Both the position numbers and the translations under genes were made by a program. A stretch of 25,597 bases of DNA from positions 120,494 to 146,090 of IMG/VR virus record IMGVR_UViG_3300035208_001055; one strand, 5' to 3'. Below are positions 1,414 through 19,361 of this stretch, one piece after another. The number at the start of each line of letters is the position of its first letter. Positions within the stretch are counted from its first letter, which is position 1. This DNA comes from a virus. Its lineage: Duplodnaviria; Heunggongvirae; Uroviricota; Caudoviricetes. A model generated the notes under the pieces. It ran no database searches. It was not told the origin of the DNA and was given only the letters and a program-made list of their open reading frames with translations.

Positions 1414-1905
1414 TTAGGCGACTTCAGCCAAGACCGTTGACTGAATCACCCCGCCGCGAACGAAGTCCAATAGGTCCCACTCCCCCACAAGACGTATCCG
1501 CTCGGCAGGAACCTCACTCACAAGCAACTCGACGCCCTCGCCCCAATGATCGAACGGGCCATCAGGTTCGTGAAGTTCAAGATTGTGCGTGAGAAAGCGC
1601 CGGTCCTCGTCACCCCGCGCAAGCGCCGCGAGGTTCGCCAGATTCGCTGCCGCTTCCCACGACTCATACTCGACCTCCAAGCACACAAGATGCGAACAGC
1701 GATGACGTGCGGCAACATAGAGCAACATGCCGATCAACTTGTTGTCCGACTGAAACTTCTTGTAAAGCCAGATGCAACCGTCCTCGACAAACTCCAAAAT
1801 GAACCAGAATGCCTTATGGTGTCGTTTCTCAAGTGGCGACAACTTCAGACCATCACGTTGAATATCATGCCACGCGGTCCACGTTGTGTAATGGTAGCCG
1901 ATCAT
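1414..1905 (-). CDS. Putative ADP-ribosyltransferase-fold (H-x-T, Tpt1/PARP-like) protein
   Basis: Start moved to MIGYHYT because the upstream ORF extension overlaps the tRNA-like element. GYHYT...IQRDGL, aromatic strand IWLY and VELLVSEVPAERIRLV resemble ART-fold strands. Confidence 0.5.
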   Translation of the reverse strand: MIGYHYTTWTAWHDIQRDGLKLSPLEKRHHKAFWFILEFVEDGCIWLYKKFQSDNKLIGMLLYVAARHRCSHLVCLEVEYESWEAAANLANLAALARGDEDRRFLTHNLELHEPDGPFDHWGEGVELLVSEVPAERIRLVGEWDLLDFVRGGVIQSTVLAEVA

Positions 1906-1910
1906 TATTT

Positions 1911-1985
1911 TGGAGGCTCCCGGTGGGAGTCGAACCCACACGTTCCTTCCCTTGTCGGGCGGTCTCTGATTGGACTACGGAAGCC
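1911..1985 (-). tRNA. tRNA-like element / pseudo-tRNA with 8-bp acceptor stem, canonical T arm, U discriminator + CCA, aberrant anticodon arm
   Basis: Minus strand: GGCTTCCG TA GTC CAATCAGA GAC CGCCCGACAAGGGAAGG AACGT GTGGG TTCGACT CCCAC CGGGAGCC T CCA. Acceptor and T arms pair fully; there is no D-loop GG, no U33 and no 5-bp/7-nt anticodon arm. Confidence 0.75.
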
Positions 1986-1992
1986 ACATACG

Positions 1993-2145
1993 TTACAGAT
2001 CACACTTAACAGCGTCGATCAATGATTGCACATGATCCCGCAGGCACTCCAACGCCTCCACCGTCATCTCTTTCGAGATCGACGTGTCGCCCATAAGACG
2101 GTCGGCTGCGTCACATGCGTAGTTGTACAAATCATTAGCGTCCAT
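1993..2145 (-). CDS. Hypothetical protein (50 aa)
   Basis: Manual: MDANDLYNYACDAADRLMGDTSISKEMTVEALECLRDHVQSLIDAVKCDL; GGAG SD; overlaps the GHKL gene stop. Confidence 0.7.
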   Translation of the reverse strand: MDANDLYNYACDAADRLMGDTSISKEMTVEALECLRDHVQSLIDAVKCDL

Positions 2146-3586
2146 CGACTGTCTCCAAGTCTCGGGTCTTCATGTTCACAACCATGTCAACCAAGTAGTT
2201 CTGAATGTCACGAGTATTGTCACCGGCCCCCGTCACATGATGAACACATTCCTCCAATGCGGTCTTCAACAGGTACTTGTTATTACCTGAAGCGATGTCC
2301 TCACGTAAGTAAACTGTCCCATCCTCGTAGTAACCCATGCAGTCCGTCTCGCCATTTGTAATATCACGATAGCAGGCGACTTTTGGCTTTGACTTTCCTT
2401 GAGTCATTCCCAATGAAGCAATCCACTCCCAGACCATTACAACAGACTGTTCGGCGCACAATGATGCACTGCACGGCTCACGTCCCTTTGACTCGGCGGC
2501 GCTTAACACGGTCGTAGCTGTTGGGATACCGAATCGTTCAGCAGCACGTACCCACGTCGATGACTGAATTGTCTTCGGCATATAACCCTTGCGTTGAACC
2601 AACTCGACCTGATGTGCCGTCGATTCACACATAACCGAAGTCCCGGCGACCGCCTCCCACGCCCGCTTGAATGCGTCCTTTTGTTCCTGCTTTGGCGTCT
2701 CCCACGAGGGACAAAGATAGTGGTCGTCCAACCCTGCCTCAAACGTCTTTTCCATCTCAGTCAAGCTGCGAAGGATCGGTACGAGTTCATCAGTCGTCGC
2801 CTTGCGTAACAACTGAGCGCACCCGGCTCGGATCGCATACTCACTGCTGTTTCGGCATTCGTCAATCTGAAGTTCGTCTGTCTGAAAGTTGTAGTCGTAA
2901 ACCGATGGTGTCGGGTACTCTTGCAACTCTCGGACAAAGACACCGGCGCGGTATATCATTGCGCTTCCATTCGCACTCCGATTTGCCTTCGGAAGAAATC
3001 GTCTCTTCACGTCACCGGGCGTGTCGGAAAAATGAAGAAAACGCTTGGACAACTCGGCAAGATATTTCTCCACCTCATCATTTATTCCAACGTACACGCG
3101 GGTGTATCCATCCTTTGCCCGCACCTCGGCGTCGGGAACCTTTCGCACGGCGAGTCGGCCTTCTCGGATCGCGGCCTCAAACTGCCCGCACTCCTCACGC
3201 AACGTTCGATCAATAGCATTGCTAACAAACTCACGCAGTGCCATCCCAAGTCGAGTCCAGTCAATGGCCCCGAAGTCCAACACCCAGCCGAGATCAACCT
3301 TCTTCGTACTCGTCCCGCCAAACTGCACGTAGACTTGCTTCACTGTCTTTGTCGTAAGGCCATCATTCACTTGCGCCTCGCGGGTAAGGAAGTCCAACTT
3401 CGTCTTCCCACAATAAACCGTAACCGGCAAGCCAGCGCGCAACAACACATTGATAGCGTGCTTGGTGCCCGAGCCAAATTGTCCGATCACACCTTCCACA
3501 CCACAGCCACGAGTGGTACTGACGCCAAGAAGTGTGAAGCCTTCAACTGGTGATACACCTGGATTTTGAATCAGTAGAAGCGACAT
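2135..3586 (-). CDS. GHKL (HATPase_c) ATPase with permuted motif order and C-terminal zincin-like EExxH motif
   Basis: QNPGV (G1-like), IGQFGSGTK (G2), LREFVSNAID (N-box) and TALEECVHHVTG near the C-terminus. Confidence 0.8.
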   Translation of the reverse strand: MSLLLIQNPGVSPVEGFTLLGVSTTRGCGVEGVIGQFGSGTKHAINVLLRAGLPVTVYCGKTKLDFLTREAQVNDGLTTKTVKQVYVQFGGTSTKKVDLGWVLDFGAIDWTRLGMALREFVSNAIDRTLREECGQFEAAIREGRLAVRKVPDAEVRAKDGYTRVYVGINDEVEKYLAELSKRFLHFSDTPGDVKRRFLPKANRSANGSAMIYRAGVFVRELQEYPTPSVYDYNFQTDELQIDECRNSSEYAIRAGCAQLLRKATTDELVPILRSLTEMEKTFEAGLDDHYLCPSWETPKQEQKDAFKRAWEAVAGTSVMCESTAHQVELVQRKGYMPKTIQSSTWVRAAERFGIPTATTVLSAAESKGREPCSASLCAEQSVVMVWEWIASLGMTQGKSKPKVACYRDITNGETDCMGYYEDGTVYLREDIASGNNKYLLKTALEECVHHVTGAGDNTRDIQNYLVDMVVNMKTRDLETVDGR

Positions 3587-5654: not shown

Positions 5655-6980
5655 CTAAGTTTTCCAGTACAGAGACAGTGCCTTGCGTGTACAGCGCTCT
5701 TGAAACTGGGCACCTGTTTCCCCGGCTCCATACAAGATCGTATCGTGCCACACACCGGGCCACTCTTTTAAGATTCGCTCGCAAAGAAGTTGACGACCTT
5801 CCTGTGACAACTCTTTCATTTCAAGGATGCGGTCAATGCGACCTGGACGGGTTGAGACATCGCCGTCAGGAATACCGAGTGCTGAGTCGAGTTTTTCAAG
5901 ACAATTCGTTGTGACGATAAGTAGCACACCATCCGCCCGTTCCACGCCGTCAAGACAATTCAGCAAGCAGTCAAACGATAGGTGCCCACCGGCTGTGTTC
6001 TCTCGTCCATTGAACACGTTATCAATGTCCTCGATCAACGCAATACATGGTACGTTGGCGAGCATATTCTTCCACGCTGCTTGCATTTCATTGTTGTAGA
6101 GCGTAGAAAGATTGTAGACGAAAATTGGCAAGTCGAAATCCTCGGCGACAGCACGGATAGTCGCCGTCTTTCCGGTTCCTGGTTTTCCGTGTAAAAGCCA
6201 ACTACGTCTCCACGGGATACCACGATCTTTGTACCAGTCTTCACTTGTCTTCCAGCGGCGAACTTCTTCCACCATCATCAACGCATCGGAATCGAGTGCG
6301 AGGTATGAAAGCGCGTTGCCATGATTGATGCGGCCTTCACCTAGATCACGTTCGTGCCAACGAAGCAATCGGTGTTGTGAGTGCAACTCACGAGACGAAC
6401 TACCACCGCCACACGCAGCTAACGTTGCTTCGCTGTCATTATTCGTGCTTGCTGGTTTTCCAGCAGTGCCGAAAATATGTCTGATGAAATAACGTGGATT
6501 CGCGGCCGTGTCGATTGTCGTGTGAAATTGGTTGTAGCTATCAGCCGATTCCTGAACCAGTTGGTCAATATCAAAAGTTCCACGGAAAAACGTCAACTGC
6601 ACACCTGTTTGTATGCAAGTGTCCGTTGTTCGTAGCTGCGCTTCTTCCTTATTCGATATGCGTGAAATCCAAATTGGACGCCACCCGTACCAGTAAAGTT
6701 TTGTCGTATTTCCAATCACTTCCATCGGAACGACTTGTCGGCGTTTTACCGGACGAACATACTCCCACCAACCAATATAACAACGAAGACCGAGGGGCGA
6801 AGTCTTGAAACTATGCCAAAAATGAAATGTCACGGCGTCCGAAAGAGAGCCGCGAACTTCACTCGATACGATGGCAAAACTAGCAATGGATTGCCAGAAA
6901 CCCTTTACATAACCCCAAAAAGCACCAAGAAAACCTGTAGCCGCAGCGCCACCAGCAACAATCCAGGCCCAGTCACTCAT
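5655..6980 (-). CDS. BCS1-like AAA+ ATPase with N-terminal transmembrane anchor
   Basis: Walker A LLHGKPGTGKT, Walker B LIEDID, LLNCLDGV, sensor-1 TTN, RPGRID Arg finger; WYKDRGIPWRR; hydrophobic N-terminus. Confidence 0.9.
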   Translation of the reverse strand: MSDWAWIVAGGAAATGFLGAFWGYVKGFWQSIASFAIVSSEVRGSLSDAVTFHFWHSFKTSPLGLRCYIGWWEYVRPVKRRQVVPMEVIGNTTKLYWYGWRPIWISRISNKEEAQLRTTDTCIQTGVQLTFFRGTFDIDQLVQESADSYNQFHTTIDTAANPRYFIRHIFGTAGKPASTNNDSEATLAACGGGSSSRELHSQHRLLRWHERDLGEGRINHGNALSYLALDSDALMMVEEVRRWKTSEDWYKDRGIPWRRSWLLHGKPGTGKTATIRAVAEDFDLPIFVYNLSTLYNNEMQAAWKNMLANVPCIALIEDIDNVFNGRENTAGGHLSFDCLLNCLDGVERADGVLLIVTTNCLEKLDSALGIPDGDVSTRPGRIDRILEMKELSQEGRQLLCERILKEWPGVWHDTILYGAGETGAQFQERCTRKALSLYWKT

Positions 6981-7353
6981 GGTTTTTCTCCTTGGATTCC
7001 GGTTTCTCTTTTTTCTTGTGCCACGGCGGCAATGCTAACGCCATCTCAGCGCAATACAATGCAAACTTCCTACTATAGTCAACGTGACCAGTGGCAGGAA
7101 TTTCGGCTCTCTCAATGTCCGCCAGCGTCACGAGATCAAGACCACGCTTCAATCGTTCAGCATTCACGGCGTCGAGCATGACGCCACGTTCATAGAGCAT
7201 CCACTCTAACGAGTCGCCAATCCAAACCATCTTTGTCGGACGCAGCACTTGGGCTGCTGCTAAAATCTTCAAAAATTCAGTGGCGAGACCGGGTAGAGCG
7301 AGCGCGGCTGCGGTTGTTGCAACAATTTCGAGCATTATTCCTCCGTTGACCAC
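6973..7353 (-). CDS. Hypothetical protein, hydrophobic N-terminus
   Basis: ORF tiles between the cyclophilin and AAA genes; exact start uncertain. Confidence 0.65.
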
Positions 7354-7757
7354 TCATTGATCGTGACTTTTTCTATCACGTCACCCTGCACGATGGAACG
7401 AACAACATCCATTCCCTCGATCACCTGTCCAAAAACAGAGTGTTTTCCATCTAGCCACGGACAGGCAACGTGTGTAATGAAAAATTGCGAGCTATTTGTA
7501 TTAGGACCCGCATTCGCCATCGACAAAGTACCCGGACCATAGTGCCGAAGCGTCGAGTGAAATTCATCCTCGAACATGTAACCAACATCGCCAGCGCCAG
7601 TTTGAGCCATGAAATTCGGGATCACACGATGGAACGGTTTTCCATCGTAAAAGCCAGTCCGCGCCAATCTCACAAAGTTCTTCACAGTCTTCGGTGCTCG
7701 CTCCGAAAGATAGGCGTAAATAAGACCGCGATTAGTACGGATTGTCACTGTCTTCAT
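7335..7757 (-). CDS. Cyclophilin-type peptidyl-prolyl cis-trans isomerase
   Basis: APKTVKNF...[17 protein letters not shown]...[19 protein letters not shown]...[15 protein letters not shown]; start moved to MKTVT (TGATG coupling). Confidence 0.95.
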
Positions 7758-8650
7758 CAAATGTCCTCCACAATCTCGTCCCACTTTTCAGAAACAGAAG
7801 TCAACTGGTCACGAGCAAGTTGCTGTTGTTCGACAGCCACGTCCCATGCTGCCATGTTCATCAGTCTCCGAAGATGATCGCTAATCAACCCGACAATTGT
7901 ACTCGGTTCCAGGGCGTCCAATTCCCAACTCTCGTCGCCGTACAACTCGCGGTAAGACTCATAGCGAGCGTCCGTCGCCTTCGCAAAATTAGGCGGCGGT
8001 TGATACTTGTCGATTTGAGATTTCAAGAGTGCGATCCGGTTAATCTCAACCGACGAGCCGAATAAGGAAAGACGGTCCTGAATATCGCGCGTCATGTCAA
8101 TGCCGCTGGGGTCGTGATCGCCAAGATGCAGGATCACGGTGTGTTTCCCGCACTTCTCCCGCTCAAGAAAACGTTGAGCCGCTGCCCACATCTCACTCTG
8201 ACTCGTGTAACCACGACACGCAAAGTAAGGCACGTCCATCTCGGCACAGACGCCTTCGATCACGCCAACAAGAGCGTCCTTCTCAATCCAGCACTCTACA
8301 TAGCAATCTTGTGTGTCCCACAAGTTGTGCCGAAATTGCTGGGCACACGCCCGCACAATATCACCAGGAGAATCCCAATGTGCATTCTCACGCATGTTAC
8401 GTGTGCGATCTTCAATCGCAAGCCAGTCGATCATACCGGCCAAACGGCCGTCATTGACAATGCTGCCAATGTTTTTGTACGACTGTTGCGTATTCGGAAC
8501 CAAGTCACGGCTGACAAACTGGTAATACAGTTGCCGCAAGGTCAACTTGTACCCCTGTTGCCAGTATTCCGTGATAATCTTGTTCGCTTGGTCGATGACG
8601 GCCAGCGAGTCGCTGCGAAAACGCTTCTTCACGTAACATCGTTTAGGCAT
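7757..8650 (-). CDS. TopoVI-A/Spo11/Mini-A-like protein (winged helix with Tyr + TOPRIM domain)
   Basis: LTLRQLYYQ (candidate catalytic Tyr), [10 protein letters not shown] (TOPRIM Glu), [15 protein letters not shown] (DxD), RIAL, WELDAL; start moved to MPKR with GGAG SD. Confidence 0.8.
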
Positions 8651-8660
8651 CTCAACACTC

Positions 8661-8915
8661 CTAGTCAACAAGTTCCAACAGAACACGAGCCGACATATTC
8701 GACTCCCAGAAAATCTCACGCACCTTGCAAGGTCCAAACGATGTGGAGACCGTATCGTTCAGCCGAAATTCTCGCCCGCGAACATCGGGTCGATCCGTCC
8801 GACCTTTCACTCGAAAGATGTAACGAATTTCCTGTCGCACTCTCTCCACACGTTCCTCCCGATCTTTCCTCGGTTGACGGGCATCACGCGGTCGCTTCGA
8901 TTGCTTGTCTGACAT
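8661..8915 (-). CDS. Basic hypothetical protein
   Basis: Start moved to MSDKQ (GGAG SD); Arg-rich N-terminus. Confidence 0.65.
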   Translation of the reverse strand: MSDKQSKRPRDARQPRKDREERVERVRQEIRYIFRVKGRTDRPDVRGREFRLNDTVSTSFGPCKVREIFWESNMSARVLLELVD

Positions 8916-8928
8916 CACTACTGCTCCA

Positions 8929-8963
8929 AAAAAGGGTACAAACAGACTCAAAAAGGGTACAAA
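8929..8963. repeat. 14-bp direct repeat AAAAAGGGTACAAA x2, 21-bp period
   Basis: Copies at 8929-8942 and 8950-8963, filling the intergenic gap. Confidence 0.85.
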
Positions 8964-8964
8964 G

Positions 8965-9606
8965 TCACGTCGTTAGCTTGAAAAAGGCGTCCCAACACTG
9001 GGTTCTCACCAGTGTATAACCATGCGGCTCCATGATCCAGCGAAGTCGCGCCAAAACTTCAGCGTCCTCCCGGTACTCCACAGAGATACGGTTGATGATA
9101 CGATTCGGAAATCGAAAGTATTCTTCGAGAACAGGCACTTCAGCGCCTTCAATATCGAGACTCAAGTAGTCGATCTGAGGTGGAGTAGTCTCTTCAAGAA
9201 TCTCCTGAAGAGTCTTAACAGGGACATAGATGCTAGTGACACCCAGACGTGCGGCCTCATCCTGCCAAGCTGGCGGGAGATAAACTGATAGCCCGCCCCA
9301 CATCCCATTCCGAGTGAACCGCCATTTCTCCCCCAGCCAATTAGACTGTGGCGCTACAGCGCCATTCCATGCCGCGCACCCCGGTCGATTCTTCGCAACT
9401 TGTTCAAATAGACATGGATCAGCTTCGACAAGAAGCCCCTTCCAACCAAAATATCTCTCCAAAGTCAATGTATTGCTATGTTGGACACCATCAAAAGCGC
9501 CAATTTCAACAAAGAAACCGTCTCGCGCACCCTGCGAATCTTCAACTACCCACCGATCTTGTTGCGTTGCGGGTTGTGAGTAGTAGATAATGTCGTCAGT
9601 CGTCAT
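8965..9606 (-). CDS. FkbM family (Methyltransf_21) SAM-dependent methyltransferase
   Basis: YSQ...QD, FFVEIGAFDG...SNTLTLE...WKGLLVEADP, IDYLSLDIEGAE; start moved to MTTDD (ATGA overlap). Confidence 0.9.
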   Translation of the reverse strand: MTTDDIIYYSQPATQQDRWVVEDSQGARDGFFVEIGAFDGVQHSNTLTLERYFGWKGLLVEADPCLFEQVAKNRPGCAAWNGAVAPQSNWLGEKWRFTRNGMWGGLSVYLPPAWQDEAARLGVTSIYVPVKTLQEILEETTPPQIDYLSLDIEGAEVPVLEEYFRFPNRIINRISVEYREDAEVLARLRWIMEPHGYTLVRTQCWDAFFKLTT

Positions 9607-10394
9607 ACGCCAACCTCCTGCAAAACCGGGCACGTAGGAATAACTCGTGGCGTGAGTTGTCCCAAGTAGCTGTCACCAAGGTATCGTTTAATGAGACGGT
9701 GAACGGTGCCTTTCGTCCAAGCGAATCCTCGACGGGTCACATAGCCTCGCTTGTTTAAGTGTTCGGTGATTTCTTGAAGCGTGCAACCCGAGTCTCGAAG
9801 TTCCCGTATCCACGGAATAATCGGCTCGTACCGTCTCATCATTGCGTCCTTGACATTCTTGTGAGCGATTTCTCGACCATGTTGGCAGCCCTGTCGGCGA
9901 CGTTCAGTACGTAGGAACATCCCATCTTTCGTCATTCCGTCCCAGTGGCCAGGACGAGCGGAACCAAGTGGAATGCCTTGAGCCTTCAATTCCGCTAATG
10001 CCTCCTTCGTTCGCTTCGAGATCAATCGGGCCTCTTCCTCGGCGACAGCAGCAAGAACATGAATCGTGATTCGATTGGCCGTAGGAACATCACACGCAAC
10101 AAACTCCAACCCGCTCTCCATCAACGTCGAAACAAAAGCGACATTACGAGCCAACCGATCAAGTTTGGCAATCACGAGAACAGCCCCCGCCGCATTCGCG
10201 TGCGCTATCGCTTTTTGCAACTCGGGCCGCTTCTTAGCCGACTTACCGGTTTCCGTCTCCGCATACTCTCCAATCACCTCTCCCGGTTTCCGAGTCGTGT
10301 AATCAGCAATCGCTCTGTGCTGAGCATCAAGACCGAGGCCGGACTCTTCTTGTTTTCGCGTAGAAACTCGGTAATAGTGGACATACTTTGTCAT
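9603..10394 (-). CDS. Serine recombinase (resolvase/invertase catalytic domain + C-terminal DNA-binding domain)
   Basis: YYRVST (catalytic Ser), GLGLDAQ, RPELQKA, AKLDRLARN, EARLISKRTKEAL. Confidence 0.92.
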   Translation of the reverse strand: MTKYVHYYRVSTRKQEESGLGLDAQHRAIADYTTRKPGEVIGEYAETETGKSAKKRPELQKAIAHANAAGAVLVIAKLDRLARNVAFVSTLMESGLEFVACDVPTANRITIHVLAAVAEEEARLISKRTKEALAELKAQGIPLGSARPGHWDGMTKDGMFLRTERRRQGCQHGREIAHKNVKDAMMRRYEPIIPWIRELRDSGCTLQEITEHLNKRGYVTRRGFAWTKGTVHRLIKRYLGDSYLGQLTPRVIPTCPVLQEVGV

Positions 10395-18641: not shown

Positions 18642-19197
18642 GACTGCCAAATTGGCAGTCTCAAGCGGCGACCGGAAAATCGTTAAAAATGGCGCAACCG
18701 CGCGCGTCGTTTCGGGTAGCCAGTAGAGGGGATTAGTCACTAATCTAGTGAACATTGCTTACGTCATACATTCGCTACATAAGTCATTACCCGCGAGGTA
18801 CTTAGAACTATAACCATTGCCATAACCATCATAGATTACAGCCCTATCATGCCATAGTTTAGTCATTTAGTAATCATTAGTTTTGCTTATGCTATCCCGA
18901 CACAAGATAAGGGACGATGATACACACGGACTATTCGTTACTGCCTACTTATTGAGCATGACCCTAAAGGTAGGGATAGGCAGCATAGACCTAACTACTA
19001 GCATAGTCAGTAGTTACGCTCTATTGCATACTGCCTACTTATTGAGCATATCCGTTAGCACTAGCAAGGGAGGGAGGGCGATAGTAGACTGCCATAATGG
19101 CAGTTAGAAACACCCCTCTATCTGTAGGGTAGACTGCCATAATGGCAGTCGATAAGCGTTAAACTGCCATTATGGCAGTCGTAACCTGATAGAGGGG
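18642..19197. repeat. Array of 19-bp palindromes GACTGCCA-N3-TGGCAGTC (4 copies) with nested inverted and direct repeats
   Basis: Copies at 18642-18660, 19087-19105, 19132-19150 and 19162-19180; CCCCTCTATC/GATAGAGGGG inverted repeat encloses copies 3-4; TACTGCCTACTTATTGAGCAT at 18939 and 19029. Confidence 0.9.
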
Positions 19198-19361
19198 CTT
19201 CTATTTTCGGTTCGCCTTGCGGGGCAAGTAGAGGGCAGGGTATTCTAGGCCGATTGCCACCTTAGAACGCAAGGGGCGCAAAGCTAGACCTATCGTGATT
19301 ATCGGGGTTGTAGCGATTAGGTAAGTTAGGCAAGATGCGCCTATTGATAGCCTACCATTTG

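Follow-up and report, generated by a model that had tools for sequence, protein, structure and literature searches.

The window, by which we mean the whole 25.6-kb stretch of DNA analyzed here, forms the end of the 146,090-base record of a 146-kb phage. A tRNA-like RNA gene lies at positions 1911..1985 on its minus strand and was assigned, based on covariation and a family model (R1), to the 3-bp subfamily of a family of RNAs that share a GACAA loop. The element scored 77.6 bits under R1, compared with 32 bits or less for the ordinary tRNAs of the same genome. All parts of the RNA are encoded on the minus strand. Its acceptor helix comprises eight base pairs between a 5' strand (1978..1985, the first base being position -1 in standard numbering) and a 3' strand (1915..1922), with 1985-1978 pairing with 1922-1915 according to fold and covariation. 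The D arm (1962..1975) is of the tRNA-Leu type, having a 3-bp stem, A14 A15 and G21 A22, and its loop has neither G18 nor G19 (i.e., GG is absent). In place of the anticodon stem-loop, a 3-bp hairpin (1949..1959) without U33 closes the invariant GACAA pentaloop (1956-1952). The linker or variable region (1940..1948) ends in the invariant U48 of the A15:U48 pair and contains a G at 1945 that is able to pair with C26 at 1961; the equivalent pair is formed in 16 of 19 scorable sequences, six of them with a change on both sides. A T arm of five base pairs with a canonical 7-nt loop (1923..1939), 100% paired across 39 homologs, and a U-CCA found in this copy only (1911..1914) complete the element. 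An earlier sequence-only reading had listed the 8-bp acceptor helix, U-CCA, short D arm without GG, perfect T arm and missing U33, and all of these are indeed present on the minus strand.

Upstream of the RNA and syntenic with it, a 483-aa gene product with an Hsp90/GHKL-like ATPase fold is encoded at 2135..3586 (minus strand). This protein has ATP-site motifs in permuted order, a zincin-like motif near its C end and over 700 relatives, and it has no Pfam match. The downstream neighbor is a 163-aa ORF (1414..1905, minus strand) whose language-model features, and nothing else, mark it as ADP-ribosyltransferase-like. AAA ATPase, topoisomerase-family, FkbM methyltransferase and serine recombinase genes lie further upstream in the same direction (5655-10394, minus strand), and a long inverted repeat at 19112-19198, near the point at 17-20 kb where GC skew and gene direction change, is a possible origin or control region.

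When the element was scored with standard programs, Rfam's tRNA model (RF00005) gave a marginal 29.5 bits (cut-off 29) with the anticodon arm left unaligned, but ARAGORN, which had been proposed as a check alongside it, made no call at the element. No Rfam family besides this marginal tRNA match was recovered, and no sigma-70 promoter above chance was detected near the gene. Single-sequence folding was no better than for shuffles (z = -0.87), so the case against chance rests on comparative evidence. Contigs X9 (1837-2046) and X7 (1935-2084) from an independent study carry identical letters over the element, which excludes the assembly error that had been raised as an alternative. Short contigs from two runs labelled RNA-Seq also cover the element; these are possibly DNA and show neither ends nor strand, and were left out as evidence of expression.

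The encoded U-CCA, in which C73 is followed by U and then CCA, is probably incidental. The U-CCA letters are absent from a co-occurring strain, CCA is likewise absent from the closest relative (L026), and among the matches listed for the 3-bp subfamily an encoded CCA was present in 1 of 40, the frequency expected by chance. The meaning that had been attached to CCA and U73 consequently does not extend to the family. The rest of this genome encodes seven ordinary tRNAs, none with an encoded CCA, and a tmRNA; a search of the phage genome for a PolyA_pol-type CCA enzyme found none.

Syntenic relatives were retrieved through the upstream 483-aa gene, i.e., without using the RNA sequence. At 54%, 71%, 80% and 94% protein identity (L002, L028, L027 and L026, respectively), the same RNA was present at the same position; the GACAA loop was kept in 4/4, on stems that differ and are all paired. 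A normal tRNA such as Val-GAC, which had been suggested as a possible occupant of this locus in close relatives, was looked for and not found, as the unusual arm recurs in all four relatives. In a fifth (L029), the RNA lies on the opposite side of the 483-aa gene, is shorter and lacks the hairpin, indicating that decay does occur, but as an exception. HNH/AP2-type homing endonuclease genes are inserted directly 5' of the RNA at L002:6407-6913, L026:2840-3349, L028:11443-11928 and L029:9363-9848, which resembles their behavior at real tRNA genes.

Viral, metagenome and genome collections were scanned with a pattern that fixed the loop and left the stems unconstrained, which identified 39 distinct sequences. 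Covariation in homologs, another check that had been proposed, was strong: 92% of the cells in the alignment were paired and 19 of 22 pairs showed changes on both sides, whereas 0/500 shuffles were as high and slid controls were only 31-44% paired. The stem beneath GACAA was paired in 39/39 sequences, with both-side changes at 3/3 pairs, and the anticodon arm, previously described as disrupted, is instead the most conserved part of the family. Since the loop had been fixed in these first scans, they were repeated with the loop free and only U33 excluded. Among the matches listed, 40 of 62 non-canonical matches had GACAA (23 on a 3-bp stem and 17 on a 4-bp stem), two to four had GAAAA and the remainder were scattered. 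The sequences with 4-bp stems (at least 17) form a separate subfamily that also covaries, and covariation supports all four helices in both subfamilies. The family thus amounts to at least 57 distinct GACAA sequences in at least 30 groups at 85% identity, found in unrelated phages and with a mean pairwise similarity of 0.63. Eight triplet types and four quartet types of closing stem were present among the matches listed, with the loop unchanged throughout. Covariation and loop invariance together bear out the proposal of a conserved, non-decoding tRNA mimic as opposed to random decay. The search patterns fixed D-arm and T-loop letters, meaning that invariance at these sites is partly imposed and that members with other D arms were missed.

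Among 185,579 prokaryotic genomes scanned, about five real matches were obtained, mostly on short contigs of assembled genomes, and this near-absence indicates that the family is essentially viral. When three members were used as BLAST queries, the 50,697 records of cultured phages returned only tRNA-Leu and unrelated tRNA-like RNAs, and hence no carrier in that set. Scanning viral contigs for the exact sequence produced nothing useful (a match on L001 was due to chance), and a loose pattern applied to 301 Planctomycetota genomes gave matches at chance level, the same as the control. No published description of such an RNA was found in the literature searched, the coverage of which was incomplete. 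ARAGORN annotates several members as tRNA-Cys(ACA) or His and misses others.

To which tRNA the scaffold is related can be read from its D arm. Among the matches listed, 91 canonical tRNAs share this D arm, and all but one of them (90) carry a Leu anticodon. The canonical tRNAs that the family model scores highest (40-45 bits) are of the short-arm tRNA-Leu kind; on this comparison of sequences, the scaffold is derived from a short-variable-arm (type I) phage tRNA-Leu, and not from tRNA-Val(GAC) as had been supposed. Parentage from tRNA-Val(GAC), tRNA-Cys, tRNA-His and tRNA-Sec was rejected. The core has been kept in the family (U8, A14, A15:U48 and a T loop with U54-A58 and C56), although the invariance of A15:U48 and of the Leu-type D arm in alignment A1 is partly imposed by the search pattern. 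The D stem to T stem length is also near canonical (20-23 nt). Other features changed: among the matches listed, A73 is present in 89/91 canonical tRNAs vs 9/57 family members, CCA follows position 73 in 34/91 vs 0/57, and G19 is retained in 50/57 members, GG in 13/57, with G18 mostly lost. No synthetase identity is conserved at 73, 1:72 or 3:70. The eighth acceptor pair (-1:73) emphasized in the sequence-only reading is present in this copy and, among the matches listed, in 29 of 40 members of the 3-bp subfamily (17.6 expected on shuffling), where it is formed by four pair types, but in only 1 of 17 members of the 4-bp subfamily. Many phage short-arm tRNA-Leu genes (L085-L225, a pattern-selected set) have C rather than U at position 33, and a separate set of RNAs resembling tRNA-Leu, in which the arm is shortened and the loop reads AAUA or GAUA, was seen in L086, L095, L096, L103, L105, L110 and L113.

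The RNA was present as one copy per record in the records tested, and in 6 of 12 complete phage records it was the single tRNA-like gene detected. A partner gene was sought and not found, as no protein neighbor is fixed across loci. At 12 loci, all in this phage clade, the RNA is preceded by the GHKL-like gene, which does not precede it in other clades; in several loci the RNA begins about 6 nt past the stop codon of this gene. Source names place this GHKL-linked clade near Planctomycetota, which is weak evidence of the host. In other clades the RNA follows AAA ATPase, ribonucleotide reductase or tail-region genes, or stands head to tail in Lys-UUU, Leu-UAA, Arg-UCU and Ile-UAU tRNA arrays beside T7-like replication genes. 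A functional link to the ADP-ribosyltransferase-like ORF was rejected as incidental, since this ORF adjoins the RNA in only about four loci of the 3-bp subfamily. Ro60 was likewise rejected as a partner: its gene was found in 2 of 23 carrier records, including this genome (about 60 kb away), and the other 21 show none. An abiF RNA was detected in 5 of 44 records, spanning both subfamilies, and in all five it ends 2-4 nt upstream of the element (L054:4943-4979, L174:4864-4901, L222:2855-2892, L124 and L126). In the abiF system, the RNA serves as a type III-like antitoxin against a HEPN nuclease (bioRxiv 10.1101/2025.04.15.648962). No Abi_2 gene was seen in these five records, which are 9-38% complete, making the absence of the toxin gene weak evidence, and the abiF RNAs beside the GACAA RNA are candidate orphan antitoxin RNAs in phages. 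The genome of this window has no abiF RNA. Three further structured sequences recur in the 60 bases 5' of members from different phage groups (L138/L189/L203/L212, L052/L060/L079 and L042/L062), none of which matched Rfam at gathering score.

Additional tRNA-like RNAs were observed in this phage record outside the window. The one at 29433-29534 (minus strand) has a similar D arm and a long closed hairpin replacing the anticodon loop, and its tRNA body is the second-best match of the family model in this genome (47 bits). Two tRNA-shaped RNAs with large anticodon-arm inserts (61206-61325 and 61527-61664, minus strand) lie just upstream of the Ro60 (TROVE) gene at about 59.6-60.6 kb, and an isolated tRNA-like unit at 81470-81560 (minus strand) has a T arm and a 7-8 bp acceptor, but its D region does not fold; a T run comes after the unit. 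In cultured phages, an unannotated tRNA-like RNA of Streptomyces phage Karimac (86163-86242; L229:1471-1550) lies between tRNA-Val and tRNA-Leu; it lacks a D arm and consists of an acceptor, a T arm and a long hairpin that carries GACAA close to its tip, and similar BLAST matches occur in about 20 related Streptomyces phages. Another is common to Xanthomonas phage Xoo-sp13 and Klebsiella phage KP13-26 (L227:1170-1245 and L228:1170-1245).

Compared with known RNAs, the family shares the acceptor, D and T helices and the core (U8, A14, U54-A58, C56) with decoding tRNAs (RF00005), but has a 3-bp stem and a closed 5-nt loop (39/39) where these have a 5-bp anticodon stem, a 7-nt loop and U33. It shares its D-arm signature, A15:U48, short variable region and T arm with the type I tRNA-Leu of phages (e.g., Gordonia phage Sixama tRNA-Leu(UAG)) and Streptomyces (PMC6614811), and differs from it by the lack of an anticodon and of the 5-bp stem with 7-nt loop, the loss of A73 and mostly of G18, and the frequent extra -1:73 pair. 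The tRNA-His combination of G-1:C73, then CCA, and a GUG anticodon is not seen in the family, where among the matches listed G-1:C73 occurs in only 14/40 and no GUG anticodon is present. The acceptor stem of tRNA-Sec and allo-tRNAs has 8 or 9 bp, and an 8-bp acceptor occurs in this copy and in most of the 3-bp subfamily but hardly in the 4-bp subfamily; tRNA-Sec and allo-tRNAs have long variable arms, long D stems and intact arms with real anticodons, with allo-tRNAs arranged as 8/4 or 9/3 (PMC5389517), whereas the family is 8/5 or 7/5 with a short variable region and no anticodon. Given these long variable arms and the absence of the eighth pair from the 4-bp subfamily, that pair is no link to them, and the comparison, initially drawn for this copy, fails across the family.

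The GACAA letters on a short stem recall the boxB RNA of phage P22, a likeness of sequence alone. In P22, the pentaloop adopts a GNRA-like fold from which the C is extruded, and a protein recognizes it (PDB 1A4T, described in PMC12550061). P22 boxB, however, is a stand-alone cis element of the nut site, whereas here the loop sits on a full tRNA body in several unrelated phage groups. Among phage tRNA mimics, T4 species 1 and 2 (rnaC and rnaD) are likewise non-decoding, have a T arm and lie within a tRNA cluster, but are 120-140 nt long with long inserts and no GACAA hairpin, and the family model found no match when run on them. YrlA-type Y RNAs (PMC4201824) are also tRNA mimics with D and T arms that are found in phages, yet have a permuted layout and a Ro60-binding stem; the GACAA RNA follows the ordinary tRNA order and matched no Rfam Y RNA. 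Judged by these features, the GACAA RNA resembles other phage tRNA mimics and belongs to none of their groups. Plant mitochondrial t-elements (PMC1920247) and mascRNA similarly place a tRNA-like unit with a reduced anticodon arm, a plausible RNase P/Z substrate, at transcript junctions; these are eukaryotic with no loop motif conserved across lineages, unlike the GACAA RNA with its invariant loop and its behavior as a mobile single-copy gene.

A widespread, conserved virus family argues for a working non-decoding RNA rather than a broken tRNA, and we regard such a function for the GACAA-loop element as highly likely. How it would act is less certain, and we give slightly less than even chances to a trans-acting ligand or decoy, i.e., an uncharged tRNA mimic with a protein-read loop. 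The gene would make a small independent RNA, taken from a short-variable-arm phage tRNA-Leu and folding into the tRNA L-shape, for which covariation provides the evidence. Host RNase P and 3' nucleases would cut this RNA out of the phage transcript; that host enzymes process it as they do tRNAs is suggested by the kept core and the place in tRNA arrays. The free discriminator and the closed 5-nt loop without U33 suggest that the RNA is probably neither charged as a specific tRNA nor used in decoding, although the loss of A73 does not exclude charging because the LeuRS of Streptomyces charges without it. The working part would probably be the fixed GACAA loop, likely in a GNRA-like fold, held at the anticodon position. 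As the flanking stems have been fully turned over with the loop unchanged, we infer that the loop is recognized by some factor, which would be a protein that binds tRNA-shaped RNA.

The likeliest kind of reader, at the level of a guess, would be a host anti-phage nuclease or toxin that targets tRNA and is occupied by an uncleavable decoy. A decoy for host tRNA-targeting defense is favored by the tRNA-array and abiF contexts and by the use of phage tRNAs against defenses, as these are known counter-defenses (PMC11555353, PMC11464382). Against this stands that the known counter-defense tRNAs replace cut host tRNAs and are not decoys, that a decoy of a nuclease would be expected to look more like the target anticodon loop, and that this genome lacks an abiF RNA. 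We consider it doubtful, if worth stating, that these RNAs represent a phage-wide, RNA-only anti-defense class that offers a boxB-like loop to an immune nuclease of the host that targets tRNA, or to another reader of the anticodon arm, sometimes with co-transcribed orphan abiF RNAs that they would help release.

The alternative with the most in its favor, a minority possibility in our view, is a cis-acting processing signal resembling t-elements and mascRNA, at which RNase P and 3' nuclease cuts would set the ends of neighboring mRNAs or small RNAs (e.g., the abiF RNA) and the loop would only stabilize the fold. The core and elbow are kept while the discriminator and CCA are free, the element hugs stop codons or sits within a few bases of structured RNAs or tRNAs, and the abiF RNA ends 2-4 nt ahead of it in five records, as such a signal would have it. 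However, to our knowledge neither RNase P nor RNase Z reads the anticodon arm, which leaves a loop invariant across at least 57 sequences unexplained when ordinary stable tetraloops would serve, and the element moves as a unit between unrelated gene contexts.

Charging with Leu by an anticodon-blind LeuRS for non-ribosomal use (L/F-transferase, or tying up LeuRS or EF-Tu) appears unlikely. The kept U8-A14, A15:U48, T loop and short variable region are features used in Streptomyces, where LeuRS charges short-arm tRNA-Leu without A73 (PMC6614811), and short-arm tRNA-Leu genes are the best canonical matches of the family model. Yet A73, kept in 89 of the 91 canonical phage tRNA-Leu among the matches listed, is not kept in the family, the -1:73 pair and the loss of G18 alter the acceptor end and the elbow, and the fixed loop is not explained.

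Very unlikely, in our estimate, is a boxB-like antitermination site on a tRNA scaffold to which an N-like phage peptide would bind. The loop of P22 boxB reads GACAA, and the GAAAA variants match that of lambda boxB, which we take to fit the same GNRA-like class. No boxA-like neighbor was seen by eye, however, boxB needs no whole tRNA body, and no common phage gene was found near the RNA among carriers. A marginally smaller likelihood still attaches to an unusual decoding tRNA, reading UGU with ACA or UUG with a remnant CAA, as ARAGORN's tRNA-Cys(ACA) and His calls, the near-canonical D stem to T stem length and the tRNA arrays might suggest. Against it, a 7-nt loop would require the opening of a pair that exists in 39/39 sequences, with three pair types, U33 is missing, and no identity is conserved at 73, 1:72 or 3:70. 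A decaying tRNA pseudogene, integration remnant or assembly error, in line with the marginal Rfam score and the loss of both D-loop guanines in this copy, is refuted by family-wide covariation, loop invariance and the same letters in independent contigs.

Phage "pseudo-tRNAs" are usually discarded or misnamed (by ARAGORN as Cys-ACA or His, or missed), and annotators should be warned that phage tRNAs seemingly bearing an ACA anticodon are artefacts. One such class is now seen to be under strong selection for structure and loop sequence across unrelated phages, even tRNA-less ones. It also offers a sharp and cheap experimental handle, as the RNA is 73 nt long and has a single invariant loop of five bases, whose reader is open to pull-down. 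If that reader were an anti-phage nuclease, the GACAA RNA would represent a decoy route of counter-defense distinct from tRNA replacement.
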